DNA of 64,000 nucleotides from Vermamoeba vermiformis. Lineage: Eukaryota. The stretch spans positions 1 through 64,000 of the forward strand of contig JBEWZL010000149.1 in the NCBI GenBank assembly GCA_045837725.1, in the 5' to 3' direction. A program made the position numbers and the translations under genes. Positions 1,902-39,862 of this stretch are shown piece after piece (positions within the stretch are counted from its first letter, which is position 1; each line of letters starts with the position of its first letter). The notes beneath the pieces are model-generated. The model did no database searches and was not told where the DNA came from. It saw only the letters and a program-made list of their open reading frames with translations.

Positions 1902-4900
1902 TTATTTTGGAGTGCGGCGATAAAGCACCATAATGTCATCCTTGGAAACTGTGAGCATGCCTTTTCCAGTAGTACGAGAAACTAACATTCCAGTGTCAAT
2001 TAAAACTGGTTTTTTAACATTCCCATAGTGAACAGTTTTGGGAAAGTTTCTCTCAGGGAAATCATCTTGGACTGGCACATGAAAGTATTGGTAAAGAATG
2101 TGGCCAATTATTTCATGAGCTTTGTACTTGATGAGATCTGGGTCATTTCTTGTCTTGAATGGCTTCATTATTGGACTGGGCCTATTGTTTGGGCCTTTTG
2201 CTTCATTTCTTGGGGTTGAAGCCTTTTTCTGCTCCACAAAGGCATCACGTTCACGTTCTATCTTCTTTGCAACTCTTTTAGCCATCATAAAGATGAACGA
2301 GTTATCCACTGGGTGAGGCAATGGTTGTCCTTCTCGAAATTCCATTGGAGACGAGTAAAAAGGAGAGTAGAACTGCGGGACAACTTTATCCAAGAAAAAG
2401 AAGTTGTCTTTCTTAGCCAACAAAGCAGAAACACCAAGAACTGGCACCCACTCCAAGTGATTCACGTACAACAAGATGTTCATTTGGTTATGAACGTCTT
2501 TGGCCTCAATTCTATCCAACATTGGAAAGGTTGCACCATTCTTCTCATCCACATCTTGGTAAATTGCAAAATGCATTTTTCTAATAAAAAATCAGCTATC
2601 GGTTCGACGTAGCTACTTTTTTAACACTTACTCGTTTAATTCGGGGAAGCTTGCATTTGCCGTTTGCCAGAGACGAAAAAATTGTTGGTTTGCTATGGGA
2701 GGGGCAGGGATAAAGCCACCTTTTCCATCCTCTGGGATAATAGGGAAGCACGTCTCGATGAATCGAGTTATAACCTTTTTGGTTTTAGAACACTTGATAT
2801 TTTGCAGTGTGAAAGGTTCTTTGGAGGTGAGTAATTTGAAAACCTGCTTGTGCTTGGATGGGCTAATTTGCCATCCAGCAAAAAAGGATTCAAACAGGGA
2901 ATTCAGCAAGCTTGTAGCCAACACCATAGACTTTGAGGGGTATAACGGTTGAAAAAGCTCTTGCTTGGAGGTAGTTTGAAGTTGAACAGCTGCTTCCAAA
3001 GATTCACACAGTGGCCCTACTTGGGATACACGCCATTTGAAAGCTTGGTACAAGAATCTCCTTGTTAGAGCTAACTGGGGAGCCAATATATTCTGAGCAT
3101 CCTCATCTTCATTAACGATGGACTTCTTGTTAGAAGCGAGCAGAGGGAGATCACAATAACTACTCGCAGGCTTTTCCCAGTTGAAAGAAAATGTTCCTTG
3201 GGGAATGTAGATCTTGTTGTAGGCAAAGATATTTTCGATGATGTTCAAAGATGAAAACAGTTTTGGGTTGTGCAAGGTTGGGATGCTTCCAGACCAAATA
3301 AGTTGTTGAAGCTGTACAAATAAATTAAGCTTTCACTTGGCTCTATACACTTTACTTACATCCTCTAGCAACGCCAGCGCATTTATAACTTCGATATTGA
3401 GAACATCTTGCTCTACAGTAAAAAATCAGCTACGGGACCTTGGTAGCTACTATTATGCAACTTTTAGCTTTACCTTTCAAAGCTTCCTTATAAATTTGTT
3501 CGAACATTGTGTGCAAAGTAATTGCTTGTTGCTGCGTCAACAATTTGATAGATTCTGATGAAACTAATTGGACAGGGCTGAATCTCATCGACTCATCTGG
3601 GATTTTCCTTTCGCAACAAAGTCGATACAACTCCAGGTGAGTTTCAATGATGCTATCTGCAATCTCTTTCATTTCATCAAAAGCAGCTAGAAGGCGCTGC
3701 ACTCCCAAGTTTTGAAAACTAACTTCAAGCCTGATGCCTGCAGAACTCTCTTTCAAGGTTTGCAATATTCTGTCAATGTTCGCCTTTTCAGAACTTTTAA
3801 GAAAACTCTGTCCAATTTGAAGAGACCTAACTCGAACAATTAGACTCGTATCAACTAAACTTTTGTCCTTACTTGTTGAGTATAAACTTTTGAGTATCTT
3901 CTGGAATGTTGGATCCATGACAAACAATATCAAATGGAACCACTCCAACAGTATAGCAAGTATCGTTGTAGGGAGCATTATTTCTCCAAAACTGACTTGC
4001 AGAACAGTACACTTTCACCTCACGTACTGCATACTGTTTGGAGTGCCATTCTATCATGCAGCTTGACACTTGTCCCAAGCCCAAGTTTGGGAACAAAACA
4101 AAATGTCCCTTTGGTTGTTTTGAAGCAGCTTCATCTTTGGTTGGGGGGTGTCTCTCGTTTAGTTGCATGAGGTTTCCCAAAGGAGATTGAGAGGGGATTG
4201 CAAAGCATTCCAAGTATTGAGGAGACCAAACTAGAGACATGATGCTTCTGTAATCTGCTTCAGGACTAAAAACTAGATTAGAATAACATAGATTAGGTAA
4301 CCACGTACCTAATTGTGAATGCTAAGTCTTGTATGAACTGGGTGTTGTCAAAGAGGTGGTTATTGGGATCTGTTATGTCATCCAAATTGAATACTGATGC
4401 CACATGCTGCATGTGAGCTTCAAATCCAGCATGACTTTCAAAAATCTCTTTCTTGCCAAAATATTGAAACGAGAAACACAAACGAATCCTACACAATACT
4501 AAGCTACCATCGCTCTATTATCTATCAACTTACTTTTGACCATTGTAGGTAAAGTGATCTAGCTTGTTCTCAATGCAGACAAAGGACCCTACTTCAACAA
4601 CTCCCTGAATCTTATTGTGGAACTTGTTTTTGGTGAAAGCAAGCAGCTGATTATGCCATATCCCCATGGATCCCCTCTGCGGGCTTTCAACAATGCCTAA
4701 ATGCAGCTATCAGTCATCGGTAGCTAGTTTTTTCCAACAGCTATGTTTACGATAAAATACGAGCTATTGAAACTTGATAGCTAGTTTTACCTTGGAGTAG
4801 ATGCAAGTAGAATTGATCGATGAGCTGCTTTGGTTCTGGGAATCTTGATCTTGGACAATCCAGAAAACAGACATATACTTTCCACTTGCCAGCAACCTCT

Positions 4901-5778
4901 CTTTGATCAGGAGTTAATGAATTTCTAACCTAATATGTAACGTACCCTATCTGCACATTAACTACGTTGTGTAGAGTCACACCTTTGTATTCGTGCTTTA
5001 TCTTCATAGCCCACGAAGAGTATTGCGGTGTTAAGCTTAAATTTAAGCACTGCTTGAGTACTTTGAGCGTGTCCGTGTGCACAATCGTTGCATCAGCGTC
5101 TTGTGACAACTTGAAAGTCGAAGGAAGCACATTCGCTGGCTTGGATTCCAATGAATACACTTTTCTTGAGTTAATCCACTTAGTCCAGTGCGACTCAGTA
5201 GACTTATTCTTGATAGAACCAATGCTTGGGAAAAGAGACTGAGAGCTAGCAATTACTGCTTGCTCTAGTTCACTCGTGTAAACACCTCTTTTTTCTTTCC
5301 CTCTCTTAAGCCTTGCTAACAACTCTTGTTTGTTCTCCTCTGGTAACTCCCGCCATTCATCTTGAGTCACATCCAAGCTAAGTAGAGGTAAGCAATCCAC
5401 TACGCACCTTATGCCTTCACTTACTTTTCAAGTTTGAATATCACTTTCTTTTTGTCAGAAGAGGTCAACTTGCAAAAATCTTGTGGATGAAGACAAGGGT
5501 TATCAGCTTGTAAAGCGTTGTATTTTTCATAAGTAAAGTCTTTCTCCTATAGATATAATTGGCATTGGATCGACAATACTACAATGACTTACTTGCACTG
5601 CTTCGTGCTTTTTAATAACTTCTTGATCATCTTCAATATCCATTCTATCGTCGAGTTGGATCGCTTCATAATCAGCCTCAAAATTAACGACGAAATCAGA
5701 CGAGAGGTTGTTCTGGTCACTGACGCGTCCATTATCCGAGGACATGTCGTAAAAGCGGTTGCGGTTGCGACTGTCCAT
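1902..5778 (-). CDS. Large orphan multi-exon protein B (roughly 1,100 aa), unknown function
   Basis: ORFs 5527-5781, 4930-5400, 4293-4496, 3869-4240, 3430-3978, 2628-3275 and 1902-2576 join through ~45-95 nt GT-AG introns. Starts MDSRNRNRF and ends VLYRRTPK*. Confidence 0.65.
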
Positions 5779-5867
5779 CACTACAAATACAATTTATTTA
5801 GTATACAAAATATGACCTATTTACTAAGACAGATGGAAAAAAACTCGTCGGGAAACGGAGAAAAAAT

Positions 5868-8427
5868 CTATCCAAGTAAATAGGGAGGTAACTCTTTGTC
5901 AAGAGTCCACGCAGAAAAGTAGGACGCATGTAGATACGTCGGAGATCTACAATCTGCTTTAATCACACTCCAGCTCTTCTCCAATGTCGAAGTAGTAGGA
6001 GCTCTTTTGATTAGAGAGGAATAAGGAATGTCGCAAAACAGAAGGGCTGGAATCAGACGACATATCTCAAGGAACTTGAACATATCGCTCTTGCACCTAA
6101 ACAACAACTGCTTGAGCTCAAAGCAGATTTCTTGTTTAAACTTACGTTCGAAAGGCTTGCTTAGGGGCCTTTACACCAACTAGTCGTCTAGGAAAGCAAC
6201 CAAGACGCTCAAGTTTGATAAACATTGGATGCTTCACAAGTTTGTCAAACAGTGCCGAGTTAACTGCTTGCGAAAGAGCTGATGTATTTTTGGAACCAAA
6301 TTCGGATCTGTTGGCAAGCTCTGCGGTAATGTTGCATGACCAAGAATGCAGCACAGTGCAAAGGACGAACATAACCAGTTTCACTTTGATCTGAATTATG
6401 GTAAAATATCAGCTACGGCATTCTCGTAGCTAGTTTTTTGGAAACTTGCCTTAAGCTTCGCTTGTTGCGGGAGAGTATCCTCCAAAGTCAATGCCACCCA
6501 GTTTAGCATCGCTTCTTTGTCTGCTCCTGCCAGTGTTGGATCAAGCCAGCTTCGCAAAAACGGTTTTGGAATGGCCTCCACATTAACCTTGTTGAATAAT
6601 GAAAACTCTTTGACGGCATCGCTTTGAAGGGTCTCGTGTACAGCAATGAAGTACTCCGATTGAAAGTGAGTTCGTTCGTGAAGCTCCAAGAAGAATTCCT
6701 TGCTAGTTTCTAGTGTCCAACAATTAGAAGCTGAGATTTATAAGTATAAACTCCTACCCTCCACTTTCAGTTCAGCTAACAACAAACCAAACGCAACTGC
6801 AGGAGCATCCTCGATCTCCATATCATCGGCGTCAGTGTTTTCCTTATCTTTAGTTCCTGCGCCCTTTTCTTTTGCTTTATCATCGGCTTTGCCCTTGTCG
6901 TTAACATCATCTTCGTCGAGAAGCATTTTGAGTTCACTTATTTCGTTCTTTTTTGGTTGGGCTTTTGATTTCTTCGGCTTCTTAGGCTCTTGGAATGAAC
7001 GGTCAGAGTTCTCATCAAGTTCCACAACAATAGCTCGCTTTTTCTTGCTCTTGGTCGGGCTCGCAGGAGGCTCATCGGCATCAGAACTCTGCGAATCGAT
7101 AGTGGTTCGCTTTTTCTTTGGCTTGGTCGGACTTGCAAGGGACTCGACATCGTCAGAATTCTGCGAGTCTGACTCTATGCTATCGCGCACTTCGACTGAA
7201 ACATAGTGACGAAGTTTCACTGTATAAAGCCAGTTAGCAAAGTGCATATACATCCCTCCAATAACATACCAGACTTCTCTTTCAAGCGCATTGCCACAAG
7301 CTTGTTAGCCTCAACTAAGAACTGAGCATCGATGGAACTTAGATAGTGCATGCAAACTTCGAACAGAGCCATTGGATCTGGTGAAAGTTGTAGTTAAGCA
7401 ATTGATTACTAGGGTTCTAATACGCACCATTTGCAGTCGCCAAAAGAGACTTTGCAAACTTAGTGAGATCTATTTGCAAAAAAATTAGCTATCAGCGGTC
7501 CATAGCTACTTTTTCCTTACTGTTATTGCTTCCATCTCCCTTAGACTTGGTCGGAGAGGATAACTCTTCATTGCTCTCCTCGTCCTCCTGGTCGCTATAA
7601 CTTTCTTCGAATCCATTGCCATCATAGTCGTCAGTTACTTTCTCGTTCAGGTTGAGCTTATCGGTCTTCTTTGGGTTCGGTCTAAGATTGCCTCTTCGTG
7701 GTTTGGGACTGCTGATGCTTAAAGCCTCGGATTGGTTCGACGAGGCACTTGAAGCCTCGGATTGGCTCGATGAGGCACTTGAAGCCTCGGATTGGCTCGA
7801 CGAGGCACTTGAAGCCTCGGATTGACTCGACGAGGCATCATCTTCCTCCTCTTCTTCTTGCGAATCTTTTGAATGCGACTCAACCGAAATGTCCCGCTGC
7901 TGTAAAAACGAATATCAGATCCCTATAGCTGCTTTTTGGCGCGCTCTGTATTGCAAACTTACCACCAACTCTGAAGATCGATTTCCGTCGCCAGTCGCCT
8001 TGTGCCTCGATTGCCGTGAGCTCATGTACTTTTGCAACACCTTCATGCCCTCTTCGATGCTCTCTTTGGTCACTTTCAACTCCGGCCAGGTATCAGACAC
8101 CCACTGAGCGATATCATCCTGAGAAACAAAAGATTTATCGAGCATGTAGTGCGCGTAAAAGGTACTCACCCAGATTCTTCCCGGATGAGGGGTGGGTACA
8201 TTGTTTTTAGCGCCAATATCTGCCACGGTTAGTGTAGACACAATCTTCTTGATTTCTCCCAAAAGAGTATCGTGGGGAATCATTTTGAAGAGTGCAAACT
8301 TACTAGATACAAAATCCAAAAAAAATTCTAATTTCTGTTTAAAATTGGATTTGCTGAAGTCTCCCGACGAGACATTTTCGTTTAAGATCTTTTTAAGACT
8401 AGTGATTGCTTTTTGTATATCAGACAT
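5868..8427 (-). CDS. Orphan multi-exon protein A (roughly 730 aa) with Ser/acidic/basic low-complexity middle
   Basis: Starts MSDIQKAITSLKK at 8427. Exons join through short introns (e.g. 7962-7900, 7520-7470, 7269-7221, GC-AG 6449-6391). Has NLS-like PTKPKKKR and PTKSKKKR. Stop at 5868. Confidence 0.6.
7720..7838. repeat. 30-bp coding tandem repeat x4 (ASSSQSEASS on the minus strand)
   Basis: GAAGCCTCGGATTGGCTCGACGAGGCACTT repeated four times with few changes. Confidence 0.9.
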
Positions 8428-8559
8428 ACCTCGTGTTGTTGTAACTACAATCAAGGATGAAGGTTAAAACAACCGCCAAAAAAAAACCTGGTCAAATCAT
8501 TTTGGCCAAAAATGTACCGGAGGATATTTTAATACTAGCTATTGACTTTTAATAGCTAC

Positions 8560-9840
8560 TTGCACTTTATTTACAATAGTTGGGTACAACAAAAGTTCGT
8601 TCCATCATGCACCAGCAGCGCGCACAAAGAGGCCTCCGCATCGGATTTCGCAGTTGTAAAGCTTTAGCCACCATCACTAAGTAACGCACGCGTTAGAGAA
8701 TGTGTGGAATCAACGCATATTAACGCTTTTAAATCACTTACGGGTTGGGCAGTCTGCGGGTACTTGCTAATGGGGATCGAGTGAACCGAAAGAGTGAAGC
8801 TGTAAATCTTCAGCCACTAAAAGCAACTAACGCACGCATTAGTATATGCACTATTTTAACGTGTGTTAACAATTTTAAATAACTTACGCGTCAGGCAGTG
8901 TCAGAATCTGCGGGTGCTTGCGAATCGGGTATCGTGCAGATTCAAAATTCGAAGCTGTAAAGCTTCAGCCATGGAAACTAATAAAACAACGCGTTAGTAT
9001 ATGTATTGTATTAACGCGTATTAATAATTTTAAGTCACTTACGCGTCGGGCAGTGTCAGAATCTGCGGGTGCTTGCGAATCGGGAATCGTGCAGATTCGA
9101 AATTTGAAGCTGTAAAGCTTCAGCCATAGAAACTAATTAAATAACGCGTTAGTACATGTGGTCTATCACGGGTATTAATAATATTAAATAACTTACGCGT
9201 CGGGCAGTCTCAGAATCTGCGGCAGTTGCGAATCGGGAATCGTCCAGATTCGAAATTCGAAGTTGTAAAGCTTCAGCCATACAAACTAATAAAACAACGC
9301 GTTAGTATTTGTATTATTATGACGCGTATTAACCTTTTCAAACGACTTACGCGTCAGGCAGTCTCAGAATCTGCGGGCTGCTAAATCCGGCATCGGTCGG
9401 CAGATTCTAAATTCGAAGCTGTAAAGCTTCAGCCACGGAAACTAATTAAATAACGCGTTAGTATTTCTATTATATTAACGCGTATTAACAAATTTAATTT
9501 ACTTACGCGTCAAACAGCCTTAGAATCTGCGGGCGGCTAAATCCGGCATCGGTGGCAGATTCAAAATTCGAAGCTGTAAAGCTTCAACCATTAAAACTAA
9601 TAAAATAACGCGTTAGTATTTGTATTATATTAACGCGTATTAACAAATTTAATTTACTTACGCGTCAAACAGCCTTGAATCTGCGGGCTGCTAAATCCGG
9701 CATCGGTAGATTTGAACCATCATGCGTTGGAAATGTGCTAACGCACCGTTAGTAGTGCGTTACACCAACTACGCGTTGTATTTAACCGCGTAGTGTACAG
9801 AATTACCACGTGTGTTGTTCGTGGTAATAAAATTTAACAA
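8560..9840 (-). ncRNA. Putative spliced long non-coding RNA with 8 introns and repeated ~90-nt hairpin exons
   Basis: Each repeat unit has a minus-strand GTAAGT donor, a CTAAY branch point (mostly TACTAAC) and a TTAG acceptor (introns ~65 nt). An extra intron lies at 9806-9738 and AATAAA at 8571-8566. Spliced exons have no conserved long ORF. Confidence 0.55.
8640..9710. repeat. ~155-bp tandem repeat, ~7 copies
   Basis: ACTTACG anchors at 8736, 8882, 9037, 9191, 9345, 9501 and 9656 (spacing 146-156). Well-preserved units contain GAATCTGC...GCAGATTC, GAAGCT-GTAA-AGCTTC and up to three ACGCGT. Confidence 0.95.
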
Positions 9841-10218
9841 ATGCGAAGATTTTCTTGGTTGGCCAATTTTTTTTGGCCGATTTTTTTTGGCTTGGTTTTT
9901 TTTTGTTTCCTTTTTTAGTTCTAATTTACCGTTACTCACAACACCACTACACAACCTAGGTAAGTAATTGACATTAAAATTTAGTTCGCGTTAATAATTT
10001 ACTTGTATAGATCGTGGTTACGACCATCACGAAGACTTAGATTCGGAGTGAACCCGTTACGGACGGGATACGCACAGAAAAAATCGTAAGGTACGTAATT
10101 TTAATTTAAATTACATCAATAACGACAATTTAATACATTAATATTAATAAAAAATAATAGAACGGATTTTCAAATCTAGATCTGCTCGATCTCGGAATCT
10201 GCCGAGTGTTTCTCGGGG

Positions 10219-10455
10219 CTAGTGGCACTGCATGGTTCACGTCGAACCGCGTGCCTACTAGCATTACCAACGGTTCATCCGGGTAATGTCCGAGAGCACT
10301 GGTAGATCGATCAGTGCGCGATCCTTTGATGGTTCACGCCGCGTGCAAACTTGGGACTAGTAGGCACTGCCTGGTTCACGACGAACCGCGTGTCTATTAG
10401 AATTGTCGACGGTTCATCCGGGCAATTTCCAAGTGCATTCGGATGCGATCGGTTT
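10219..10455 (+). repeat. Duplicated (~138-bp period) structured element upstream of the Fpg/Nei start
   Basis: CTAGT(A)GGCACTGCNTGGTTCACGNCGAACCGCGTG...ACGGTTCATCCGGG at 10219 and 10357, with conserved stems. Confidence 0.75.
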
Positions 10456-10493
10456 TCGAGCAGGCACGTCCAGAGCGTAGCTAATAATTTACA

Positions 10494-11985
10494 GATGCCA
10501 GAGTTGCCAGAGGTGGAAGTTTTCGCACGAGAAGTAAAGAAACGAGGTAAGTCAAGTCTTCATTTAATTTACAATTTTTATAATAATTAATTAGCAACTG
10601 GTGCCGTCATTACGGCAGTGAATAAGATTAAATTCCACGCAAAATACGACGCGGAGATATTGGCAATACGCCAAAGTTTGCCAATGGAAGTCACAAATGT
10701 AAGTAAGGTTATTTTTGAATTATTTGCTCGTTACTAACCCGTGCTCACCAGGTAGTTTCACGTGGCAAGGAGATTGCCATCATGACCGACAAGGGCTCGG
10801 TGTTGTTTGGAATGGGCACTGGTGCTGCTTTTCACGTGGGGAGTCTGACGGAGCTCGCAGAGTGTCCACTGGACACGCGCTGCAACGCGTACTTCTCCTT
10901 AGACGACGGTAGGGCAATCTTCATTCTGGATTGCCAAACAAAGCAAAACCAGGTTTCCTTCAAGTGGAAACAAGGAGGAGATTGCCCTTTCGATCCAGCT
11001 CGTGGTCCACACGCGTCATCCAGCGAGCTGCTTCCACACGTCACGAGTTGCCTGATGGACGAAGGCAACGCCAAGTATTTCAAGGTATGTATGGGCATCG
11101 ATAACGAGTAGATTGAATAATATTGGACCAGGTAGCCACAATACTGGACGCATTGCTAAACCAGTCTCTGTTTAATGGAGTTGGTGCCTACTCGTCGAAT
11201 GAAATTTGCTATTGGTTTTACGAGTACACGGGTATTGCAAAAAAAGCGGATATTGGGAGCCCGTAGCTACTTTTTTTAACGGAATCATACTTGTAGGAAC
11301 TCGTCCGTGGGCAAACTTCAAGCATGCAATGCTTGACAGGGGTTTACTAGAGCAATTCATACGCCTAGTTCAAACCTACTTCAATTTCATGTCAGAGTAC
11401 TTGCGTCTACGGCCGTACATACCACCAACAAAGTACGACGAACGAGAAGAGCTCTCATTCAGAGCTGTTTTTCTCAAGGTTTATCGTGCGCAAAACGTTA
11501 CGCTGACTTCAGGAAATCGCGTTCCGGTGGTGACGATGGCGGCTGGCTTGACAAAAGCAGGGGCCTCCCACATGCGCATTACGAAAAGCAGTGCCAGGGT
11601 GTACGTGCCGTCATTATCACCCCAGGAGATAGAGGAGTTGCCCAAGTCATGGGGAAATATCGCAACCCCGAAGAAAGAAGATCCGCAAAATCTATTCGTT
11701 GGTGCGTTCTCGTGGTGGGGCATATCCGATAAACTTAAAGCAATTGATTCCCCACAAAAGGTAAGTATTACAAAGACAATTAATTCCACTAACATTATGC
11801 AGAATATCAACTTGCGCCCAAGCACCGCGTCACGATTGATGGAGTCCGAGTCAGACCAGAGCGAGAAGAGCGAGAAGACTAATGCAGTTAGCCCGAGGAA
11901 ATTTAAAGGAAGGGGGGCTTCACGGTTGGGGGGAAGAGCCAGGAAGATACACTGCTTCCAAAAAAAAATAGAAAGTATTTTTTAA
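10494..11985 (+). CDS. Fpg/Nei family DNA glycosylase/AP lyase (no zinc finger evident)
   Basis: N-terminal catalytic MPELPEVE. After splicing (introns ~10548-10594, 10699-10751, ~11085-11131, 11232-11297, 11761-11802) it has VVSRGKEI...LFGMG and the H2TH motif LLNQSLFNGVGAYSSNEIC. Basic C-terminal tail. Confidence 0.85.
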
Positions 11986-11999
11986 ATAAATAATTTTAT

Positions 12000-13156
12000 T
12001 TACATAAAATCATCGTCCATGAAATCAGAAGGTGATTCTTCGCCACTTTCGTCACCTTCTTCATCCTCTTCCTCTTCCTCGTCGTCCTCTTCCTCGTCCT
12101 CGTCTTCCTCCTCGTGTTCTTCCTCGCGCGAGAGCGATTCTACATCCGAACTATCTGAATGTTCGGAGTTGTGCTGTGGACCGCGTACCAGCTGTTGGTA
12201 TTTGACGTGATACGCATCAAACAGAGGGATAGTGTTTGATTCTGTATCTAGCTGCTTTATCTCGGCCACGTCCACGCCAAACTTCGCAGCAATGACCTCG
12301 GCGATATCTGGAAAGGCACTCCAGCCTTTCTTCAGCCTTTCAGTGGCCGTTTTCTTGCGTAATTCACTCTCGGAAAGAAGCTTGTGATCGCCAACAGCAA
12401 CGGGCTCAGATTTAATATCATCGCGACGAAAGAGCTGTAGATTATTTAGTAAATAAATAGTTAAAAGTTTTATTAGTTCGGCGTACCTTGAGAAAAGACT
12501 TTTCTTCTTCTTCCACGAGGTCGGCTTCGATAATATCCACGAGCTTCAGTCGTGCGATCGTATTTCTAATCAATTAATAATTTAGAACAGTAATAAAAGA
12601 GTTACCTTATTTTCTGAAGCTGTTCCATCTTTGAGATCTTCGTTTTTATTTGAAGTAGCGTATTGATATCGTTGATATCGAACCAATACCCTTCGCGTTT
12701 GCTTTGGTGAAGCTTGACGTTGGGGCCTAGCGAGCCTACGGGAAGTTTTTCACCTACGAAAAATAGCTATGAGGATCTGATAGCTAGATTACACACGTTA
12801 TTACCTAATCCTCCAAGCTTTGCATATTTTTTAACAGTAGGGCAGGCAATGCCAGTAATCTCGTTTACCCCGACCACCGTGCAGCGCAAATCTTGGTTTT
12901 CCTCGTCAACGAGGAAGTCTTCTTCAATTAACCTGTAATAAATTAAAGCGTCAGGAATTTTGTAATTGAAATCAAAATATTATAATAAAATATAAAACAT
13001 CGTGTGGATTAGAAACTGGAGACGTAAAAAAATTAATTAATTAAAATAAAAATTATTTCAGTTCGAGTTCGTGATCCGGATCTGGAAACTTTCAATTTTA
13101 AACGCAAAGCACTGATATTAAAGAATTTTATGCGTTACTTACTTAAAGTTAGCCAT
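12000..13156 (-). CDS. Orphan protein with long acidic C-terminal tail
   Basis: Starts MANFK|LIEEDFLVDEE; 5 exons join in frame (introns ~13142-12933, ~12804-12754, 12605-12566, 12486-12436). Ends EEEHEEEDEDEEEDDEEEEEDEEGDESGEESPSDFMDDDFM*. Confidence 0.7.
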
Positions 13157-13241
13157 CGTGTTGCAGTTTTTCCGTCACGTGTTTGTTTGTGTTCTCGATC
13201 TGAGCAATTTTACAAAAATCTTCCGAACGAACACCTCAACT

Positions 13242-15912
13242 ATGTCACGAAGACGTAGTTATCAGTAAGTAAGCGTTATATTTCAACGTAAATACTAATT
13301 AAAAATATTTAGGGCCTCAGACGATACTTTGATCCGGGCAATGTAAGTTTTTTAATTTAAGAAATAATATTATTAAAAATAAATTAAATATTCGTAATTA
13401 AAATTAGTTAAAGCATTGTTATATTACAAAATTAATAAGTAATAATTACGACTAAAATTTTATTTTAAAAAGGGCTCGAAACACTACGTACGAGACGACC
13501 GTCAACGACATTGAAGCACGGGTCAGGCGAGAGGAGCAACAAGCTGCCGACAGAGCCGCTCGGCTAGCATCTCGCAATGGGGAGCGTGCGAGTCAAGAGA
13601 GCGCAGGGCAGCAAACTCGTGGAAATGGACGCGGTCGTGGTCAAAGCCAGAACTCTAGTGGTAGTCAATCTGGGCGCCGCCGCCCCCCGCGAAGAACAAG
13701 AGAGCAGTCGCAAGGACAAGCCGACCCTGATGCGACGCAGCTAGTTTCGTCGGCACCGCCAACGCAGGCACTACCGCCAAACAGTTCAGCTAGCCAGGTA
13801 CGTTAAAAAACTAGCTACGAGGGTTTGATAGCTAATATTTTTCACGTAGGAGGGCAATGACCAAGCATTGGTGCCTGAACCTTCGAACACCAATGTGATG
13901 ATACCTGAGCCTGATGCAGTGAGGCAAGACAACCAAAGTGCCTCACGGGAGAACGAGCGCATTGTCCCGCCAGAGTCAAGCAGTGGGGAGAAAGCAAGCC
14001 AGCACTCTTCGGGGGAGAATTCAGGTGTCGGTCATTCCGAGTCTGGCAGCGGCAAGCAATCGAGTGGCAGTGCATCCCAGAATAATGCCAACGTTATCCC
14101 TGAGTCTGGAGATGGTGTTAATTCGTTGCCTGACGGTGAGCAGGAAAGTGCGGACTCAGCGAGCCCCTCTCCCAGCAGCGCCGTTGGCGCTGATCAATCG
14201 AATGCGGACTCAGCGAGTCCCCCTCCCAGTGGTGCAGAGCAATCCAATGCGGACTTAACGAGCCCCCCTCCCAGTGGAGTAGTTGCCGAGCAATCTTCCT
14301 CTGTTGAAGGCTCAAACCAAGCCACTCCGGGGCAGGTGAGAAAAAACCAGCTACAGGAAGCCAATAGCTAATATTTTATAGGCAAGCAATGCTGTTGCAA
14401 GTGGTGTGGTGCCAAATGACTCAGCTGGCTCATCTCAGGACATTGAAAGCGCCCAGGTAAGTCAACTTTTCCTTTCCTTTACCTTTGTTCTAACTAATAA
14501 CCTACAGCGACCTCGAAATAACATTGATTTGGATCAGCCAATGGCTTTATCTCGTTACATCAACCACATCACGTTCACCAGTGGTGAACTTGAGGAGAAA
14601 ATAGACCTGCCCTTGGCAAACGAAGGGCGGCAGCTATCAAGCTCCGCGTCAACACCACAACCGCGAATGGTATGCTGTTATTAGTTTAAGATAAAAAACT
14701 AAATTTATCTATTTTAGACGACTCGCGCAGCATCTGCTCGTGAGGAGGATGTGACCGAGCAGATTGAGGACACAGAACTTCAGTCTGGCCCACGAGAAAA
14801 GTCTGCAGCTCCCAAGAAGTCCTCACCAAAGAAAAAGTCTACGCGGGAAGAGAAAAGCCAGGAGGAGGAGGATAACGAGCAGCCTCGTGCAAGAGATGCA
14901 GCCACCAAGTCCCCGGCAAAGAAGAAGAGGGTGGTGGAAGATAGCGAGGAGGAGGAAGAGCGACCTCCTTCAAAAAAACCAGCCTCCAAGTCCCCATCAA
15001 AGAAAAAGCAGGTGGGCAAGGTGGACGACGAGGAGGAAGAGCGGCCTCGGTCAAAAAAAGCAGCCTCCAAGTCCCCGTCACCAAAGAAAAAGCAGGTGGG
15101 CAAGGTGGATGAGGAGGAGGAAGAGCGGCCTCGGTCAAAAAAAGCAGCCTCGAAGTCCCCGTCACCAAAGAAAAAGCAGGTGGGCAAGGTGAGCGACGAC
15201 GAGCGGCCTCGGTCAAAACATGCAGCCTCCAGCAAGTCTCCGGAAAAACCTTCTGGAAAACGAAAAGCTCGCGATGGGGACAGTGGCGAAGATGAGCCTC
15301 CTCAAAAAAAGGTACGCATCTAAAATTAAAATTGTTATTGATAACTAACTTTAGTATTTGCAGCGAAAAGTACAGCCGTACTTCGTGAAGAAGGTTCAGG
15401 TCTTGAAGCATGCCCAGTACGATCCTAATGTGGATGAACTTGTGGCCAAGTACCGACAGGATCACCCCGGGACAACAAAGAAGGAGGCCAAGGAACAAGT
15501 CGAGAAACAAATTGCCAGGCGGCGAAAAAAGGACCGCAAGAAAAGAAGTAAGTTATTAATTATTTTTAAATGCTGACTTTAACTTGCTCTTGTAGAGTAC
15601 ATAGAAATGAAGAAGTACCAGGAGAGCGACGGTATTTTCTTCGCCAGGTCTCGCTTCCAGAGAATTGTCCGCGACATCACTGCTGATGTCGGACAAGAGT
15701 ATAGGTTCCAGAGGAGTGCTCTGGAAGCTCTTCAATACTCCTCGGAAATGTTCATCACGAACGTTTTCGAGATGGCTACCTTGGCGACCGTTCACGCTGG
15801 TCGCCAAACATTGCAGGTCAATGACATGCGATTGGTGTACAATGTACACAGCATGGCAGAAGGATCTGCAATTCATTTGTTAAAAGATCGACTTCAACAG
15901 AGTCGCCAGTAG
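13242..15912 (+). CDS. Giant histone H3-like protein (~731 aa; C-terminal H3 histone fold, ~630-aa disordered N-terminus)
   Basis: Nine exons (13242-13264, 13313-13342, 13473-13797, 13850-14335, 14382-14456, 14508-14669, 14718-15311, 15364-15547, 15596-15912) total 2196 nt in frame. The last exon IEMKKYQES...RFQRIVRDITADVGQEYRFQRSALEALQYSSEMFITNVFEMATLATVHAGRQTLQVNDMRLV aligns without gaps to H3 REIRRYQKS...[30 protein letters not shown]...HAKRVTIMPKDIQLA. Confidence 0.85.
14860..15245 (+). repeat. ~75-84-bp coding repeats (EEEEERPRSKKAASKSPSPKKKQVGKVD) x~5
   Basis: Visible in ORF 14751-15323; several copies are nearly identical at DNA level. Confidence 0.9.
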
Positions 15913-16002
15913 TCCCTTGTAAAATAAATGGGTTTTTTATATCTACAGTCGCAAAAGCAGCTATGGGAATCCTATAGCTATTATTTTCGTGTCAGTAGTT
16001 GA

Positions 16003-16489
16003 TAGACCGTCCGATTTTCGTACGCCTGTCTTGGACTGGTGAAAGAGACCGTCCGATTTTCGTACGCCTGTCTGCGTGTGGTTAAAGAGACCGTCCGACT
16101 TTCGTACGCCTATCTTGGACTGTTTAAAGAGACCGTCCGATTTTCGTACGCCTAGCTTGGACTGGTTAAAGAGCCTGTCCGATTTTCGTACGTGTACTTG
16201 GACTGGGTACACAGACCGTCCGACTTTCGTACGCCTGTCTTGGACTGGTGAAAGAGAGCGTCCGATTTTCGTACGCCTATCTTGAAGGGCTAAAGAGACC
16301 GTCCGATTTTCGTACGCCTGTCTGCGTGTGGTTAAAGAGACCGTCCGACTTTCGTACGCCTATCTTGGACTGGTTAAAGAGAGCGTACGATTTTCGTACG
16401 CCTGTCTGCGCGTGGTTAAAGAGACCGTCCGACTTTCGTACGCCTATCTTGGACTGGTTAAAGAGAGCGTACGATTTTCGTACGCCTAT
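16003..16489. repeat. 42-bp tandem array, ~12 copies, partly alternating variants
   Basis: Unit AGACCGTCCGATTTTCGTACGCCTRTCTTGGACTGGTTAAAG starts at 16004, 16046, 16088, 16130 and onward. CTGCGTGTGG and CTTGGACTGG variants alternate. Confidence 0.95.
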
Positions 16490-16586
16490 CATATGACATT
16501 AAAAAAACAGCTATAGAAACTTTGTAGCTACTTTTTACAATATTTTATTTTTAACCCTCTCACCCCCAAACCCTAAAGCTATATTA

Positions 16587-16985
16587 ATTGGTCAGGGATC
16601 GTCTGATCTTCAGACGAATGGTCAGGAATTCTCAGAAATTGGTCAGGGATCGTCTGATCTTCAGACGAATGGTCAGGAATTCTCAGAAATTGGTCAGGGA
16701 TCGTCTGATCTTCGGACGAATGGTCAGGAATTCTCAGAAATTGGTCAGGGATCGTCTGATCTTCAGACGAATGGTCAGGAATTCTCAGAAATTGGTCAGG
16801 GATCGTCTGATCTTCGGACGAATGGTCAGGAATTCTCGAAAATTGCCTGGGATCGTCTGATCTTCAGACGAATGGTCAGGAATTCTTGAAAATTGCCTGG
16901 GATCGTCCGATCTTCAGACGAATGGTCAAGAATTCTAGGAAATTGGTCTGGGATCGTCCGATCTTCGGACGAAAGGCCTAGAATT
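16587..16985. repeat. 51-bp tandem array, 8 copies
   Basis: Unit TGGTCAGGGATCGTCTGATCTTCAGACGAATGGTCAGGAATTCTCAGAAAT, degenerating rightwards. Confidence 0.95.
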
Positions 16986-17586
16986 CTTCAAAAGTTTTAG
17001 GGTACTACCATCCCAGCCCTAGCCTTTTAAGTAGAATAATCATGTGGAAATGATCCAGCAAAAGAACATAAGAATAAATAAAAAAGTAAGTTTATTATTT
17101 TGCCTAATTATTTTAATTATAATTGATACTGATATTGTTTTTGTTTGCAACAGCTTTGACTTCACTGGTCTTCTGCATGCATTATGTGTTCCAAAGCATC
17201 TTGGGCGTCATTGCCAATCTGACTAACATCTTCAAGGTGCCCATCTTACCTTTCAGCCTACCAGATCTCAAGAGTACTGGCAGGAGCAACTATCCTTGAA
17301 AGTTTCTTCATTTTCATCCATAGCATAGACTCACAGTCCTACACTCTGTAGCAACAGCACACTTTTGAAATACCATCAGAACCTATTTTGACACAACACT
17401 TGATTGTTGTAAGCCTTGCAACTAACTCTTCATAACAAACATCAATCCCTTGAGTTGCATAAATATCAAATATTATTGAGATAGCCCCAGCCCCAATCAA
17501 GTAAAGCTTGAAACACATGTTTTTGCAGGATTTTTTATTTGAAACAGAGTTTTTTACACTACAATCACTGCTTTCCAACATTTTCT

Positions 17587-30400: not shown

Positions 30401-31472
30401 ACATTTTAATTTCAGAAGATCTATATGCATACCTTTTAATGTTGATCTCGATGTCGACAATCCACTGATCGTTTTCGGGCGTTGTATTTTTATAAGTATC
30501 ATAACCGCTGAGCTCTTTCACTTCTTCGGCAGTCGCTTTATGTATGCGGTAAGACCACAGCTCTGGATCAGAGTTCAATTGTACCCAGTCAATGGGCAGA
30601 TCTAAATGATGATTGAGTCGAACATTGGGGCGTTTCGGTTCGGCGTAGCGAACAACGAGGCCATCTTCATTGCGAAGCTCGAGTTTATCGTAGTATTTCG
30701 ACAAGGGAACTACAGTGACTGGTGCACCTGGATTTTCTTGCAAGAATTTGGATTTGTATTGTTGCAAAGTTGCAATCTTTTCATCAGCTGACAACGCCCC
30801 GCTTGCCATCATGAAACGTTGCCCTGTTGTGTCGAGTAATTTAGACGCGCCTCGTAAAAATTTAAACTTACCCTTGTAGTGATCGAAGTAAATGCTTGCA
30901 TCCTCCAGCAATACTATGGAATGAGCAAGATGCCAGCCCAATGATTGATCGTGCGTCAAACGAAGCCACTGACGACAAGTCAAGCCAACCGCGTGCAATT
31001 GCTTTCTTGTAAGACCAGTGAAGATTTGCAATACCAACTCGTCTGGAAGCGTGTACTCTTCTTCTCCCAAGGACTGGTAAGCACTGCTGTCCGCTGAGGC
31101 GAGGAGCTTATTGAGAGCTGTCACTTTAAGTTCGGACAAGTCGGTTTTTTTTCTAGGATTTAAAACTGCCCAATCATCCGCGTCTTCTGCGCTGTCGTCG
31201 TCATCGGCATAAGAGTCATCGTCGGCGTCGGCTGCTTTTTTCTTGGAATTATTTTTTGGCTCATCCGAGTCAGAAATATCTTCTTCGCTCTCTTCGCTTT
31301 CTCCTTTTTTCTTTTTTTTATTATTGGTCTTTTTTGGGACAGAAGAAGATTTTTTGGTGATTTTCTGCTTTTTCTTAGGTCGCTCTTCCTCTTCGTCCGA
31401 CGGATCGTCCTCTATTATCGCTACCTTGCGCTTTCTTGCTAATCTGTTAGATGTACGTGTATTTGTAAGCAT
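27493..31472 (-). CDS. F-box / SNF2-family helicase, paralog 1
   Basis: F-box TLPDELVLQIFTGLTRKQLHAVGLTCRQW; YKYQLDAIAWM, GAVLADEMGLGKTLE, WHRIVLDEGHE, AASGTNL, ESQAIGRAYRQGQ. Confidence 0.88.
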
Positions 31473-31605
31473 AATGAGTTCCGTTGGCGACCTGTGGTGT
31501 TTTGATCTGAAAAGAAATTAAAGTGCCGTTCACTTCGGCGTAAAAAAAAGTGTCAAAACGGCCACAAAAAAAAACATGACACACAGCTTTTATTTAAACA
31601 ATTGG

Positions 31606-34600
31606 CTAATCTTCCATAATGTTGTTATTATTGTTCGGCAAAACGTTGGTATTATTCACTTCCTCCAATGGTCTCGCAAAACTGCCTGAGCGTTGCAACG
31701 TCGTGTTAGTAGCGACGAGTGAAGTCAAGCTAGCTGTTTTGACGAGTTGAGGCTTGTTGTCTTTTGTCATCACGACTGTGGTGTCTTCATTCACATCGTT
31801 GTTGCGAAGATACAATGCATGCTCAATCGTGTTGCGAACGACGAAACGAACAATGGTGATTTGTTTTGTCTGTCCTTGTCTGTGTGCACGACCAATGGCT
31901 TGTGACTCGATCGCTTGTGCTTCTTTCTTTGAACCTGTCACGGGATCTGGAAAGAATGATCAGCGTGGCGATCAAGCGTTGTGTTTAGCGGAAACTTACC
32001 CATGAGAATGACATGCGTTGCTTCAATCAAGTTCGTTCCCGAAGCTGCATTTCTCAACGACAACATGATCACCTTAATATCATCTTCGTTGCGGAAACTA
32101 GAGATGGCTTTGTTTCGCTTAAATACGTTTCTACGCGAGTTGCATTAGCATTCGTATGAAGAAGATTTTTATCATTTTCGCCTTACCCTTCTACGAAAAC
32201 ATTGTCTATGTTGTGCTCAGACAAAATAGCAGAGACGCTGTTCAAAGTGTCGTTGAACTACGGATGTGTTAGCAAGGAATTACGAGACCGATGATGTGTG
32301 CGTACCTGCGAGAAGAAGATGACCCTGCTCTTCGGCTTGTGCTCGAATAACTTGCGCAAGTAAACGATCATTTGAGAAAGTTTTGTTCCGTGTTGAGAAA
32401 TGAGATCCGTAAGATCCGTTTTGTTCTGGTGTCCCCGGTTAGTTCATTTAGATACCAAAGTGATTACCCTGTTTGATTTCGTACCTTGGTACCTCTCTTC
32501 TTGAATGGCACGACCTTCTTAGCCATTTCAAGCACCTTTTTATCGTGCGCGAGCTGTTGTTCAGCCTCGGCAAGTTGGTCCTCTTGCTTCTTGAGCACAC
32601 TTTGCGCTAAGCTCTTCTGCAAAGTATCATTCTCAGTCTCGTATCGACGCTTAGAAGCAGCAACAGCCTTCACCAAGTTAGGAATAGACTTCTTAAGGCC
32701 CGGAATGGACCCTTCCTTGCGTGTAATCAGCTGTGCTAATCTGTCGTCCAGGCCCATGTCATGCAGAATAGATCCGCAAATACGAGATTGGGCTCCTGTT
32801 TAAATGTGTTAGTCTATTGATGCAACAAGAGACGACGACCACTACCTTCATCGCGTGCATCAGCGTATAAAACACTCTCAATCTCGTCAAAGTCCATCAA
32901 AACCAAGTCTTCAACACACTCAGGGATTTGATACTCGCCCTTCACTGTCTCTTTCGTGTGTCTCCAGTACAACTCTCGCAACAGCAAGTCAGTCAACGTG
33001 CTCCTAATAGATGTTAGGACAGTTCTCTCACTCTAAACAACATTGTAGACGTACTGTTTTTGCTCTCCCCAAGCATGGCGATTGCCCCAATAGTCATTGT
33101 GTTTTACTGGATCTGGTGTTTCTAGACCAAGGAACTCTTTGACTCTCGTGAAAAGGAATCTGACGAATAAATTAAGTACACTTGCATTACTACACGCAGA
33201 GATACTTACAAACTCGGAAACGGTGTGCCAGTCACGTACCACGAGAACCTGCTTTGGTAGGTCCCAATGACGTATTTGAAATACGGTACGGCCAAGTACT
33301 CGTGACCTTCATCCAACACCAGTCGATACCAATAGAAATGTTCCAGAATGGGGCACGTCTTACCCAGTCCACCGTTTTTGCCTGATTTGATTGTCTGCCG
33401 TGCGTTAGTAGCAATAACAGTGCTTAATAACTTGCCTCAAGACTAGACTCCACCCAAGCTGTTCGTTCAAGTTCTTGCTTCTTTTTAACGTTGGTCTTCT
33501 TAGCGACATTAGAGCCGAGGAAGAAATAATTAGGGTTTTGTAACAGCTGATAGGACACAATGACGACATCGTAGTTCGTGAAGTCTTCGTACGAGAACTT
33601 TCTCAGTTGAACAATTGTCGTGACCACCGCAACCTTCAGGTCAGTCACTTTCGTTAACTCGTCACTCCATTGTTTTGCCAAGTGATTAGGACACAAAACT
33701 ACGAACGCAAAGTTAGTACTAGCAATAGCTCGTTGATTTAACAATACCTAACGTAGCGCGAGAGGTGAACAACGTGGGGTGTTCCAACATCTCAGCTGGG
33801 GCAGGGTTGGCAAGTACAAGACCGATCACTGCCAGGATTAGTCGCTGTTTAGATTATAGTAATAAGTAACAACTTACTTTCCATCGTCTTGCCGAGACCC
33901 ATCTCGTCAGCGAGCACACCTCCTTTAGGCTTTGCTACTTCGACGTATGCTTCGAGGTTAGTCACAATTTCTTTCTTGGCAACGTCAAAGATGAGTTCAG
34001 TCTTGGCTCGTCTCCAAGGATACGCTGTGAAGTATGGGAGACCTGTGCAAGTCAATGTGAGAACACACGACTTAAACTTGCTATCGGTGTCACTCACCAT
34101 CTTTGTTATCTTCTACGGACTTCATCCACGAGATTGCATCCAGCTGATATTTGTAAAGCTTGATCTCGTCCTTGAACCCTTCAGGCTGTTGTTGTGCCGT
34201 GAACGAGCGCTGTTTAAAGTCAGTACATGAAGTGGAAGTCTGTCTCGTCGTACCTTAGGAATAGATGACTGTTTTGTCGAGCTGATCGTGTTCAGTTTGT
34301 CAATGAAATCGTATTGCACGAGATGGTAGATGAAATTCATGCCCGGTACTTCTTTTTTGCTTTCAACCAGTTGTTCCAGTCTAACCAAAAACATTACATT
34401 AGTGACCGTTATATTTAACAAAATGAGTACCCACCTCTTCACATTGATTTCAATATCAACGATCCATCGTCGTATGTCTTTGTATGCATCCGAGTCAGAG
34501 TAAGACATGTCCCTGGCCTCGTCGTCGTCGAATATTCCAGAGTCTTTGACTTCTTGTTTCGTAGCCTCTCTGATACGATAGCCCCATAAATCCGTGTTGT

Positions 34601-35738
34601 TATTGAGTGCTGTCCAAGGTATGTTATTGATCGTGTAGCGATGGAACTTGTAAGAGTACGGCACGAACAGCTCTGCTAAAGCCACGACATCGTCTTTCTC
34701 ATCTTGAAGTTGCATCACTTCGCCATATTCACCGCCTTCACCATCATCGTTGTAATGGAAGTGCCACGCGTTGCGAGGTTTGTGGAAACGAATGGTGACA
34801 GGAGTGCCCTTGTGCTTCGCCATGAACTCTTTGCGAACCAAGATGTGCAGCTGGTCCTGCTCATCCCAGTCGTAGTTGCTTATCTCGTCGCGCTTCTCTT
34901 GAAACTCTGCATACAGACGTTAATCATCACGAAGAAATTATCATCAAAGGTAGAACGTACCATCAAGTTGAAGGTAATATTCAACATTCTCCATTAGAAC
35001 GGTAGAATAGGCGTTATGCCAGCCCAATGACTGATCGTTGCTCAATCGAAGCCATTGACGGCATGTCAAACCAACGCCATACAGATCTCGGCGTCGTAAG
35101 TTTGAAAATATTTGAAGAATTAACTCGTCAGGCAACGTGTATTCTTCATCCTCCAACCTGTGATTATACTTCGCTGCCTCTCTAGTTGAGGTCAATTTAC
35201 GCAATGCTGCTGCTTTTAGTTCGGCTGGATTTGGCTTGTCTTCGGTAGAAGTCTGGACATTTGTATTGTTTTTCTTTGCCGGCTCTGATTTTCTCTTGGG
35301 TGATATTATTTTAGGTGCCTTTTGCTTTGTTAAATAACTTGTTTTCTTTGGGCGCGGTTTTTTGACCTCGATCTCTTCCGAACTTTCTGAAACTGATATT
35401 GAACTGCTTGAACTCTCATCGTCGCTTTCTTCTACTACGATTTTCTTCGTTGCTCTGGCAGTTGCCTTTTTAGCAATTTGCCTTTTTGGCGGCTTTTTTG
35501 CTGCTGATTTTTTTAATTCTTGATCTGATTTTTCATCTTCGCTGCTACTGCTCTCCGACGACTCTGCCTTCTTTTTTGTAATTTTGGCGATAGTTTTCTT
35601 TGCTGGCGCTTTTTTTATGACTTTTTTTTCAATTTTTTGTTTTTTCTTTGGTCGATCTTCTTCTGACAGATCTTCAACTTCATCGGCTTTTCTTTTCTTG
35701 TTAGCCAATCTCGAAGATACTCTTGTTTTTGGAGGCAT
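31606..35738 (-). CDS. F-box / SNF2-family helicase, paralog 2
   Basis: TLPDELILQIFSNL..CRQW; GGVLADEMGLGKTME; VLDEGHE; ESQAIGRAHRQGQ. Confidence 0.88.
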
Positions 35739-35844
35739 TTTGCAGCTCCTATGGTATCAGCCACAAGTTCGGAGAAAAAATGCAACGAAATTTTGAACAG
35801 CAATTTTAAATGACCGATGGTACAAGGTACCTGGTAAAATCAAA

Positions 35845-38800: not shown

Positions 38801-39862
38801 TTTGCACGGAGGGAGAAAGTTACCGAAATTGTATTGCATGTTTACGGTTGGCGGAAAAATATCTGCAAAGGCAACTACATCTCGGTTACTGTCGCGCAAT
38901 TTGATGAGACGCCCACACGTGTAACCCTCTTCGACACTGTCTTCAGGATTATCTTCCGCCCAACTGAGCCACCGCATATTTTTACTATAGTGGATCGTGA
39001 CAGGCTTGCCAGGGTGTTTTTTCATGTAAGAGTTGTAACAAGCCCGTTCCCATGCAGTCTGTTCTCCTTTCGTACGAAAATGATTATTTCTTCTTCCTCC
39101 CTTCTTTCGTTCAGGGTCTGTTTAGCGATAAAAATTAGTATGTTTTGCGATCTGAATTTGACCGTCAGTTGTGTTTGCTTCTGAGAAGGCAATCGTCCGA
39201 AAGTCAAAGTCAAAAAGTGAGCCGAAAGTGAGCTTACCTTCGTACGCAGAGTACGTATCCATTTTTTCTCGCAAAGTTAACGTGAGCGCAAGGTGCCAGC
39301 CAAGCGATTGATCATTGCTCAAGCGATACCACTGACGACACGCTAAAGCAACTGAATACATCTCACGTCTCTTCAAATACGATAATATCTGAAGAATCAA
39401 CTCGTCAGGTAGGGTATACTCTTCGTCTTCAAATCGTGTTGCTATTTGACGTTGCTCTTTGAGTGTTGTCAAGCGCTGCAGAGCTTTTTCTTTTTGAGCT
39501 AGATCTTCGGCAATTTTGATCGAGTCATCAGCAGTAACTGTATTCGTTACAATTTTAGACACTGCTACTTTTTTAGCTCGGCGTGAAGGGCGCCCTGAAT
39601 CAACTGTCGATGTTTGATCCATCAAATCATTTTCGGCGGTTGTTGCAACATTAGTGTCACTATTATTTTGTGATTTGATATCATTATTATTAACAACCGA
39701 CTTGCTAATTTTTGGCACTTTAGAATTTCTTTCTTTTTTTTCTGGTTCAATTTTCGCTTTCTTTTTAGGTCGATCTTCTTCCTGGTTGACTGGATCCTTC
39801 TCAATTTCCTCCGCCTTTCGCTTCTCGGCTAATCTGCCTGATACCCTCGTTTTGGGTGGCAT
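35845..39862 (-). CDS. F-box / SNF2-family helicase, paralog 3
   Basis: TLPDELILQILSYL..CRQW; GGVLADEMGLGKTLE; VLDEGHE; ESQAIGRAFRQGQ. Confidence 0.88.

Follow-up and report, generated by a model that had tools for sequence, protein, structure and literature searches.

A tandem array of exon-plus-intron units between two genes of Vermamoeba vermiformis, possibly a spliced noncoding RNA

What kind of element is a 155-bp tandem repeat that lies between two genes and whose units each read as an exon followed by an intron? This question is raised by a locus in the first 64,000 nucleotides (forward strand) of contig JBEWZL010000149.1 of the Vermamoeba vermiformis assembly GCA_045837725.1, a stretch that we call the window. 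The array occupies 8640–9737, with a minus-strand gene of an orphan family (gene A) on one side and a divergent plus-strand gene on the other. Its units carry intron signals on the minus strand, its reading frames are closed, and it is unevenly conserved. We favour the reading that the array belongs to an independent spliced long noncoding RNA (lncRNA), with a probability of roughly one in three. A single module, an exon of ~90 nt followed by a spliceosomal intron of ~65 nt, would then have been duplicated in tandem.

Tandem Repeats Finder (TRF) placed the repeat at 8796–9712 (period 155, 5.9 copies, 84% matches, score 1064, with extra rows at periods 308 and 464), in agreement with the ~155-bp unit given in a preliminary description of this DNA. 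A BLAST search of a single unit against the window returned six good and two decayed copies, arranged head to tail as in a minisatellite, and extended the array to about 8647–9661. Outside the array the sole match above chance was an inverted piece at 10019–9964; the rest had E-values of 0.17 or more. The array intron has an inverted homologue in the first intron of the divergent gene (9960–10011, plus strand; BLAST, 59 nt at 72.9%, E = 0.001), and several inverted-repeat pairs (I2, I9, I10, I17 and I18) link the two. In the simplest history, the segment multiplied by unequal crossing-over began within an exon, took in its intron and stopped at the beginning of the following exon. The ~31% divergence among the introns suggests that this amplification was not recent.

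The intron signals are regular and confined to one strand. On the minus strand of 8480–9960, all seven GTAAGT motifs are followed by CTAA[CT] at +44/45 and by YAG at +61 to +71; the branch site is CTAAC in six introns and CTAAT in one, and YAG lies 11–21 nt downstream of it. GTAAGT, the 5′ splice site of a U2-type spliceosomal intron, is invariant in all seven units, and between 8560 and 9840 it occurs seven times on the minus strand and never on the plus strand. The predicted introns are 64–71 nt long and match local U2-type introns in branch site, YAG and length. A pattern search of the whole window returned 65 candidate introns, seven of them in the array; 33 of the 58 others measure 40–59 nt and are of the GTAAGT/CTAAC/YAG type, and the short introns of the window appear to follow the fungal short-intron style. 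Support is thus found for reading the array unit as an exon plus an intron of the kind that this genome uses, and the presence of the signals in 7/7 units, on the minus strand alone and of a type shared with the window's other candidate introns, argues for a spliced lncRNA. All copies would carry splice signals because one ancestral unit had an intron, so their presence does not amount to seven independent observations.

The seven minus-strand introns proposed in the preliminary description were all recovered, each with GTAAGT, branch site and YAG, and so was an additional one at 9806–9738, a candidate first intron of 69 nt (GTAATT...ACTAAC...TTAG) whose 5′ end lies outside the repeat and whose 3′ end resembles the array introns. 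A donor of the form GTAATA is used by another candidate intron (12804–12754), the removal of which gives open frames of 58 codons on one side and 50 on the other. Read along the minus strand, the array begins with exon U0 (9662–9737, 76 nt), which has the loop and the 3′ framework without hairpin 1, and intron 1 (9597–9661, 65 nt). Exons U1 (9507–9596, 90 nt) and U2 (9351–9441, 91 nt), both with two intact stems, are separated by intron 2 (9442–9506, 65 nt). Intron 3 (9286–9350, 65 nt) leads to U3 (9197–9285, 89 nt), which has one mismatch per stem, and intron 4 (9133–9196, 64 nt) to U4 (9043–9132, 90 nt), where both stems are intact, as they are in U5 (8888–8977, 90 nt) beyond intron 5 (8978–9042, 65 nt). 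Intron 6 (8817–8887) is 71 nt long, though splicing to the first AG, at 8827, would shorten it to 61 nt; it is followed by the decayed exon U6 (8742–8816, 75 nt), which has lost its stems, and by intron 7 (8677–8741, 65 nt). The first ~35 nt of the last exon, U7 (8575–8676), are homologous to the start of the unit (ATGGTGGCTAAAGCTTTACAA...), and the frame of its ATG at 8674 is open to a GTAAAT at 8574. The predicted exon lengths are therefore 76, 90, 91, 89, 90, 90, 75 and 117 nt when the last piece is run to about 8560–8575.

A repeat gene for a protein is ruled out by the spliced product. Joined without the seven introns, the exons give 718 nt, in which the three frames meet 9, 10 and 10 stops; exons of 89 and 91 nt also throw the frame out of register. 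This bears out the earlier exclusion of a conserved protein. Exons U1, U3, U4, U5 and U7 begin with ATGG, at the head of a frame homologous to the start of the open reading frame (ORF) of U7. This 23-codon frame is intact in just 3/6 units (U2 has GTG and an early stop, and U3 is frameshifted), and its few changes are mostly nonsynonymous. Separate 23-codon peptides from the exons were accordingly rejected, as nothing pointed to constraint at the peptide level.

Could the array be an inert minisatellite, an exon-intron piece amplified by unequal crossing-over and under no present selection? It resembles an ordinary minisatellite in its head-to-tail units, decayed edge copies (U0, U6 and U7) and variant subfamilies. 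A single ancestral unit with true intron signals would account for all copies, the stems show no covariation, the same 17-kb region holds other palindromic noncoding arrays (42 bp × 11.6 and 51 bp × 7.9), and no homologous sequence was found elsewhere in the window by BLAST or in metagenome and viral contigs. The array differs from an ordinary minisatellite in that its units each hold a complete strand-specific intron and its conservation clusters by exon and intron part. We counted variable columns among the full units U1–U5, which are paralogues of one array. The exon framework varied at 14 of 66 columns (pairwise divergence 10.8%), the loop at 15 of 27 (33.9%), the intron interior at 28 of 49 (about 31%) and the splice signals at 2 of 16 (0% at the 5′ splice site, 5.7% at the branch site). 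The intron interior differed from the framework (P = 9 × 10−5, Fisher test) and from the splice signals (P = 0.003); across all seven introns, 4/16 signal columns and 31/49 interior columns were variable (P = 0.01).

The clustering does not depend on how the unit is partitioned. Invariant columns formed runs of 12, 11 and 11 (TGAAGCTTTACA, CCGCAGATTCT and GACGCGTAAGT), with a permutation P of 0.0017. As controls we used the two neighbouring arrays, with units cut and aligned by an anchor: clustering in the 51-bp array gave P = 0.40, and in the 42-bp array P = 0.02, but there the longest run was the anchor used for cutting the units. Between U2 and U5 the framework diverged by 5%, but the loop by 44% and the intron by 35%, a pattern that would not come from whole-unit homogenisation, which cannot spare two exon blocks yet skip the loop between them. 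We therefore read the exon framework and the splice signals as being under constraint, and the uneven conservation is better explained by a unit that is transcribed and spliced than by a minisatellite left to drift. With an intron interior diverged by ~31%, a framework by ~11% and a 5′ splice site by 0%, we regard an inert array as unlikely; if it is one, it shows a duplicated intron imitating a gene.

The conserved framework contains palindromes. RNAfold gave U2, U4 and U5 a Y shape, made of a GGC/GCC closing stem, a UGAAGCU-UUAC-AGCUUCA hairpin and a GAAUCUGC/GCAGAUUC stem around 24–27 nt; U1 formed both hairpins without the closing stem. The stems had been described as a property of the exons in general: they are intact in four of the seven (U1, U2, U4 and U5), have one mismatch each in U3 and are missing from U0 and U6. 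The loop, described as variable, falls instead into two subfamilies, U0–U2 and U3–U5, on a common skeleton (CGAT.CC.GATT..GC). To call the loops guide-like was an overstatement: they come in two types, and a BLAST search of the window turned up nothing complementary to them. The palindromes are real as sequence; as RNA structures they are putative.

If the array is an independent gene, where would its transcript begin and end? Upstream of the array, between it and the plus-strand gene, lies a poly(dA:dT) tract with the palindrome TTGGCCAA (9859–9916, including a 14-bp TRF repeat at 9859–9891) that may act as a promoter. Downstream, on the minus strand, a tract with a T-run, GGC and TTGGCCAA (8466–8512) precedes the ATG of gene A by 47 nt and would be either a promoter-like tract of gene A or would serve as pyrimidine tract in a leader intron of 130 nt. 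The two tracts form the inverted repeat I1, and two of the five occurrences of TTGGCCAA in the window flank the array. The motif T{7+}N0-3GGC has just four copies in the window, all sense-upstream of gene starts: an adjacent pair at 9867 and 9881 (plus-strand neighbour), one before the ATG of gene A, and one at 31574 (an F-box gene). We read the T-run/GGC tracts as probable promoters, which would make the upstream side of the array bidirectional and place gene A's own promoter downstream of the array. If so, TGTAAATAAA (8566–8575, minus strand), which is either a poly(A)-type signal or the site of a GTAAAT donor (8574) and stands 17 nt before a hairpin element, would signal the 3′ end of a separate noncoding unit. 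TGTAAATAAA occurs three times in the window, each time on the minus strand (8575, 12004 and 20901), and the one at 12004 overlaps the end of a long minus-strand ORF. That copy, the T-run/GGC motif 47 nt before the ATG of gene A with its like at other gene starts, and the start of three gene A homologues at the Met at 8427 suggest that the unit is separate from gene A.

Several side observations concern these ends. A recurring layout, an AT-rich box, GGCCAA(T), then T7–9 and GGC, is found upstream of three gene starts, at 8466–8512, 9859–9916 and 31574. A hairpin with a 9-bp stem, ATTACCACG-N9-CGTGGTAAT, lies at 9809–9835, in the putative first exon and donor of the array transcript, and similar ATTACC...GGTAAT hairpins recur on the plus side at about 10270–10290 and 10409–10430. 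In a sequencing run of uncertain type, the part of the locus from 7400 to 11200 was represented by one 267-nt contig (depth 9) at 9753–10019, which ends near the edge of the array. Four runs in all were compared with this part; they gave 1, 1, 3 and 0 records, without joints and none of them over the array, and the other three evidently lack this organism at 95% likeness.

From the sequence we infer transcription, splicing, both the 5′ and 3′ ends and any function of the array. On the lncRNA reading, a minus-strand RNA polymerase II (Pol II) unit would start at the poly(dA:dT)/TTGGCCAA tract at 9859–9916, shared with the divergent plus-strand gene. Removal of eight short introns would leave a ~0.7-kb noncoding RNA of six to seven ~90-nt modules, ending near TGTAAATAAA at 8566–8575, upstream of the promoter-like tract of gene A. 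Four to five of the modules would keep the framework, with a 3-bp closing stem, a 7-bp UUAC hairpin and an 8-bp stem, so the RNA would present multiple copies of a two-hairpin module to a binding partner. As the transcript heads toward the promoter of gene A, its passage might in addition influence the expression of gene A in cis. A more specific form of this reading, which we hold as speculative, is an inverted host gene in which the introns are disposable spacers, the duplicated two-hairpin exons are the selected product, and splicing assembles a multivalent platform. If the transcript exists, it would represent a compact noncoding gene grown by duplication of an exon-intron module. At about 1.2 kb and with eight predicted junctions, it would offer a tractable case for asking why noncoding exons are kept and how splicing strings RNA modules together.

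A number of observations weigh against an independent spliced lncRNA. The contrast in conservation is weaker when whole exons are compared with whole introns (29/93 versus 36/71 variable columns, P = 0.015), six of the variable intron columns are gap columns, and the units are paralogues of a single array, so the columns are not independent samples. RNAfold energies of −20.5 to −26.8 kcal/mol correspond to modest z-scores (about −0.5 to −2.4); U3, U6 and U0 do not adopt the two-hairpin fold, their stems being broken without compensation; and the plus strand of U4 folds equally well (−28.4 kcal/mol, z −1.8). Covariation, proposed earlier as a check, was not above chance, with two double-sided changes that were matched by 28 of 500 shuffles. 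The seven-exon alignment on which this is based has 93% of its cells paired and both double-sided changes in the poorly aligned rows U0 and U6, and seven paralogues give it little power. A degenerate 31-nt exon pattern had no matches in metagenome contigs and none in viral contigs, and a protein-based locus search using the neighbour gene returned no loci; relatives for comparison were thus not found in these pattern and locus searches. Palindrome-bearing minisatellites nearby imply a higher base rate of inert arrays. The last two points concern gene A. The hairpin at 8537 belongs to a family found in introns that join open reading frames, and a 130-nt intron from GTAAAT at 8574 to a TTGTAG ending at 8445 would put the ATG at 8674 in frame with gene A.

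These last points bring in another explanation, in which the array is a multi-intron 5′ leader, or a set of upstream exons, of gene A, joined to it by the hairpin-bearing intron 8574–8445. Its modules, four of the seven exons U0–U6 having an AUG, would then hold down the translation of gene A, either as upstream ORFs or as structures. The first coding exon of gene A (7915–8427, minus strand) is on the same strand as the array, and about 130 nt separate the last array exon from the leader of gene A. Gene A has three homologues with 53–65% identity, all starting at the same Met (8427), which speaks for a start there, though those gene calls are blind to spliced upstream exons; no Pfam family was matched by gene A.

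The hairpin element in question (AGCTA-N11-TAGCT, 8537–8557) is a member of a 21-nt palindromic family that is mostly intron-internal, with an A-run on one flank and a T-run on the other. The window has 12 exact copies (2594, 3428, 4705, 4762, 6411, 7487, 8537, 12765, 13813, 14349, 15959 and 16509). Together with three one-mismatch matches this makes 15, against 1.9 expected with one mismatch allowed, and none of 100 shuffles reached 15. All lie within 2594–16529 and none in the remaining 47 kb. Ten of the 12 exact elements sit in nine tested candidate introns, two sharing one intron, and when any of eight of these nine introns is taken out, the frames flanking it are open (for example 199|200, 114|173, 162|100 and 96|82 codons; in four, at least 82 aa on each side). 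Most family introns are ~50 nt long, with the donor 8–18 nt before the hairpin and a 3′ arm that runs into the branch site (TAGCTAAT or TAGCTGAT). As a side observation, this layout resembles that of introners, the stereotyped and possibly mobile introns of other eukaryotes.

The GTAAAT at 8574 is 17 nt before its hairpin, inside the family spacing of 8–18 nt, and the splice to 8445 would join ATG 8674 in frame with gene A, which is expected by chance one time in three. The element at 8537, however, is without a nearby acceptor: the first usable AG is 47–92 nt past the hairpin, compared with 11–20 nt in the family. The promoter-like T-run/GGCCAA tract would also fall within the 130-nt intron, and the AUG frames of the modules are not conserved as peptides, as the GTG, early stop and frameshift of U2 and U3 and the mostly nonsynonymous changes indicate. 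On the other side, leader exons and introns also seem to precede the ATG (10495) of the plus-strand neighbour. We consider a leader of gene A possible but somewhat doubtful; it would be an unusually intron-dense and upstream-ORF-dense one.

The array might act as DNA rather than RNA. The hexamer ACGCGT is the yeast MluI cell-cycle box (MCB) of MBF. Of the window's 26 ACGCGT sites, 17 are concentrated within 8560–9840, a density in keeping with MBF/MCB sites, with up to three per unit: one across the exon end and donor, one after the branch site and one in mid-intron. Two of the three overlap the conserved blocks GACGCGTAAGT and TACTAACGCGT. With its exon palindromes, the array would thus offer a dense set of candidate binding sites upstream of divergent genes, in units of about nucleosome length and flanked by two promoter-like tracts. 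As the plus strand folds as well and the palindromes are kept without covariation, these too could act as DNA. Yet the conserved blocks reach across all of GTAAGT and TACTAAC, sequence for which an ACGCGT site would have no use, and the third site is lost in 3/7 units. The two intronic sites are able to base-pair into an 8-bp stem within the intron, which would explain their presence, and the strand-specific signals (GTAAGT 0 versus 7) point to RNA. A role as DNA therefore seems improbable to us. MluI cell-cycle box and ACGCGT occur together in PMC3290606.

Known classes of small RNA gave no better account of the exons. Rfam returned no match at gathering score in the whole window, and at E ≤ 10 just seven weak, unrelated matches in 8400–10600; a transfer RNA (tRNA) search of the window found none. 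Among small nucleolar RNAs (snoRNAs), the C/D class has the box C consensus RUGAUGA and the box D consensus CUGA. A box C/D snoRNA was rejected, as RUGAUGA is absent from U1–U5 and CUGA, present in four of the six exons U0–U5, stands 4 nt off the only terminal pairing; the exons also lack the layout of an H/ACA snoRNA. A snoRNA host gene of the SNORD116/UHG type was set aside because the introns are 64–71 nt, AT-rich and without boxes, and Rfam found nothing. A spliced-leader RNA gene has a donor and no acceptor, plus an Sm site consensus. An array of such genes was rejected, each unit having a branch site and an acceptor as well and the Sm-type AAUUUUGA being present in just 2/6 units. The leader motif ACAACAC was not enriched (12 matches versus 9.3 expected).

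The exons could still serve as small-RNA precursors, of a snoRNA-like or hairpin-derived kind, that a noncoding host transcript would release. Their ~90-nt size and conserved framework, and a CUGA near the 3′ end in 4/6 of the exons U0–U5, would suit this, as would a fungal precedent given below. Without box C in U1–U5, a terminal stem by the boxes, an H/ACA layout or an Rfam match of note, and with an 8-bp stem too short for Dicer-type processing, which needs a longer one, we judge such precursors very unlikely.

Several known systems come close to the array. Mammalian snoRNA-cluster arrays have a conserved intronic product, and their exons drift. According to PMC4742849, the SNORD116 region is an array of noncoding IPW-A exons hosting intronic snoRNAs. 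It is like our array in that each repeat is a noncoding exon plus an intron and the Pol II transcript, here predicted, is without a protein frame; it differs in that the array introns, at 64–71 nt, contain no snoRNA, the exon framework is conserved, and the units measure 155 bp as against kilobases. In Neurospora crassa, as described in PMC2780460, noncoding multi-intron hosts of the UHG/gas5 kind carry snoRNAs (clusters I–V), and one C/D snoRNA, CD6, is encoded in an exon; they provide the fungal precedent for noncoding multi-intron hosts. These transcripts share with the predicted one short introns, multiple exons and short ORFs only, and, going by the same paper, are not tandem repeats and have recognisable C/D boxes, of which none was found in the array. 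The array stands apart from snoRNA hosts in that its introns leave no room for a guest, it lacks C/D and H/ACA features, and its exon framework is the conserved part. If the lncRNA reading is true, selection would be seen on exons and not on introns, the reverse of classical repeated snoRNA host genes. A keyword literature search for tandemly repeated noncoding exons in fungi found no like case, which is not proof that none is in print.

Other likenesses concern function. NORAD and the Xist A-repeat are repeat-unit lncRNAs that act as multivalent platforms. Like them, the predicted RNA would hold multiple copies of a short structured module in a single noncoding molecule; unlike it, their repeats are exon-internal and not separated by introns, and their partner proteins are known. 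In yeast, noncoding transcription of SRG1 upstream of SER3 regulates that gene in cis. The array would likewise be a tandem-oriented noncoding unit heading to the promoter of the downstream gene, but SRG1 has no repeats or introns.

Two neighbouring genes had been named in the preliminary description. The product of the divergent upstream plus-strand gene starts with MPELPEVE (ATG at 10495); its Fpg/Nei label rests on this N-terminus and was not confirmed, as three exon-size pieces gave no Pfam match at E ≤ 0.001 and two pieces gave no relevant hit in a PDB sequence search. Short H3 motif probes in six frames, which are not a full test, found no ORF corresponding to the H3-like gene. Before the MPELPEVE ATG, at 10090–10495, are direct repeats (10224–10298 and 10363–10437, spaced 139 bp and 84% identical) with many small hairpins, and TAGCTAATAATTTACAG immediately before the ATG resembles a 3′ intron end, as if a long leader intron finished there.

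The window is eukaryotic, with F-box and IBR/Ariadne domains. A local F-box cluster lies on the minus strand at 30402–39871, where ORFs at 30402–31517, 34947–35756 and 39125–39871 have F-box-like domains. The two other noncoding-looking arrays are at 16004–16490 (42-bp unit) and 16586–16987 (51-bp unit). The former is bracketed within 25 bp by the AGCTA-N11-TAGCT elements at 15959 and 16509; the latter contains a CGTCTGA-TCT-TCAGACG hairpin and is bracketed by inverted ACCCTAAAG and TTTTAGGGT. Two further repeats look coding: one of 30 bp × 4 at 7718–7837, in a Ser/Glu-rich minus-strand ORF just downstream of the first exon of gene A, and one of 84 bp × 4.4 at 14877–15231, in a plus-strand ORF.

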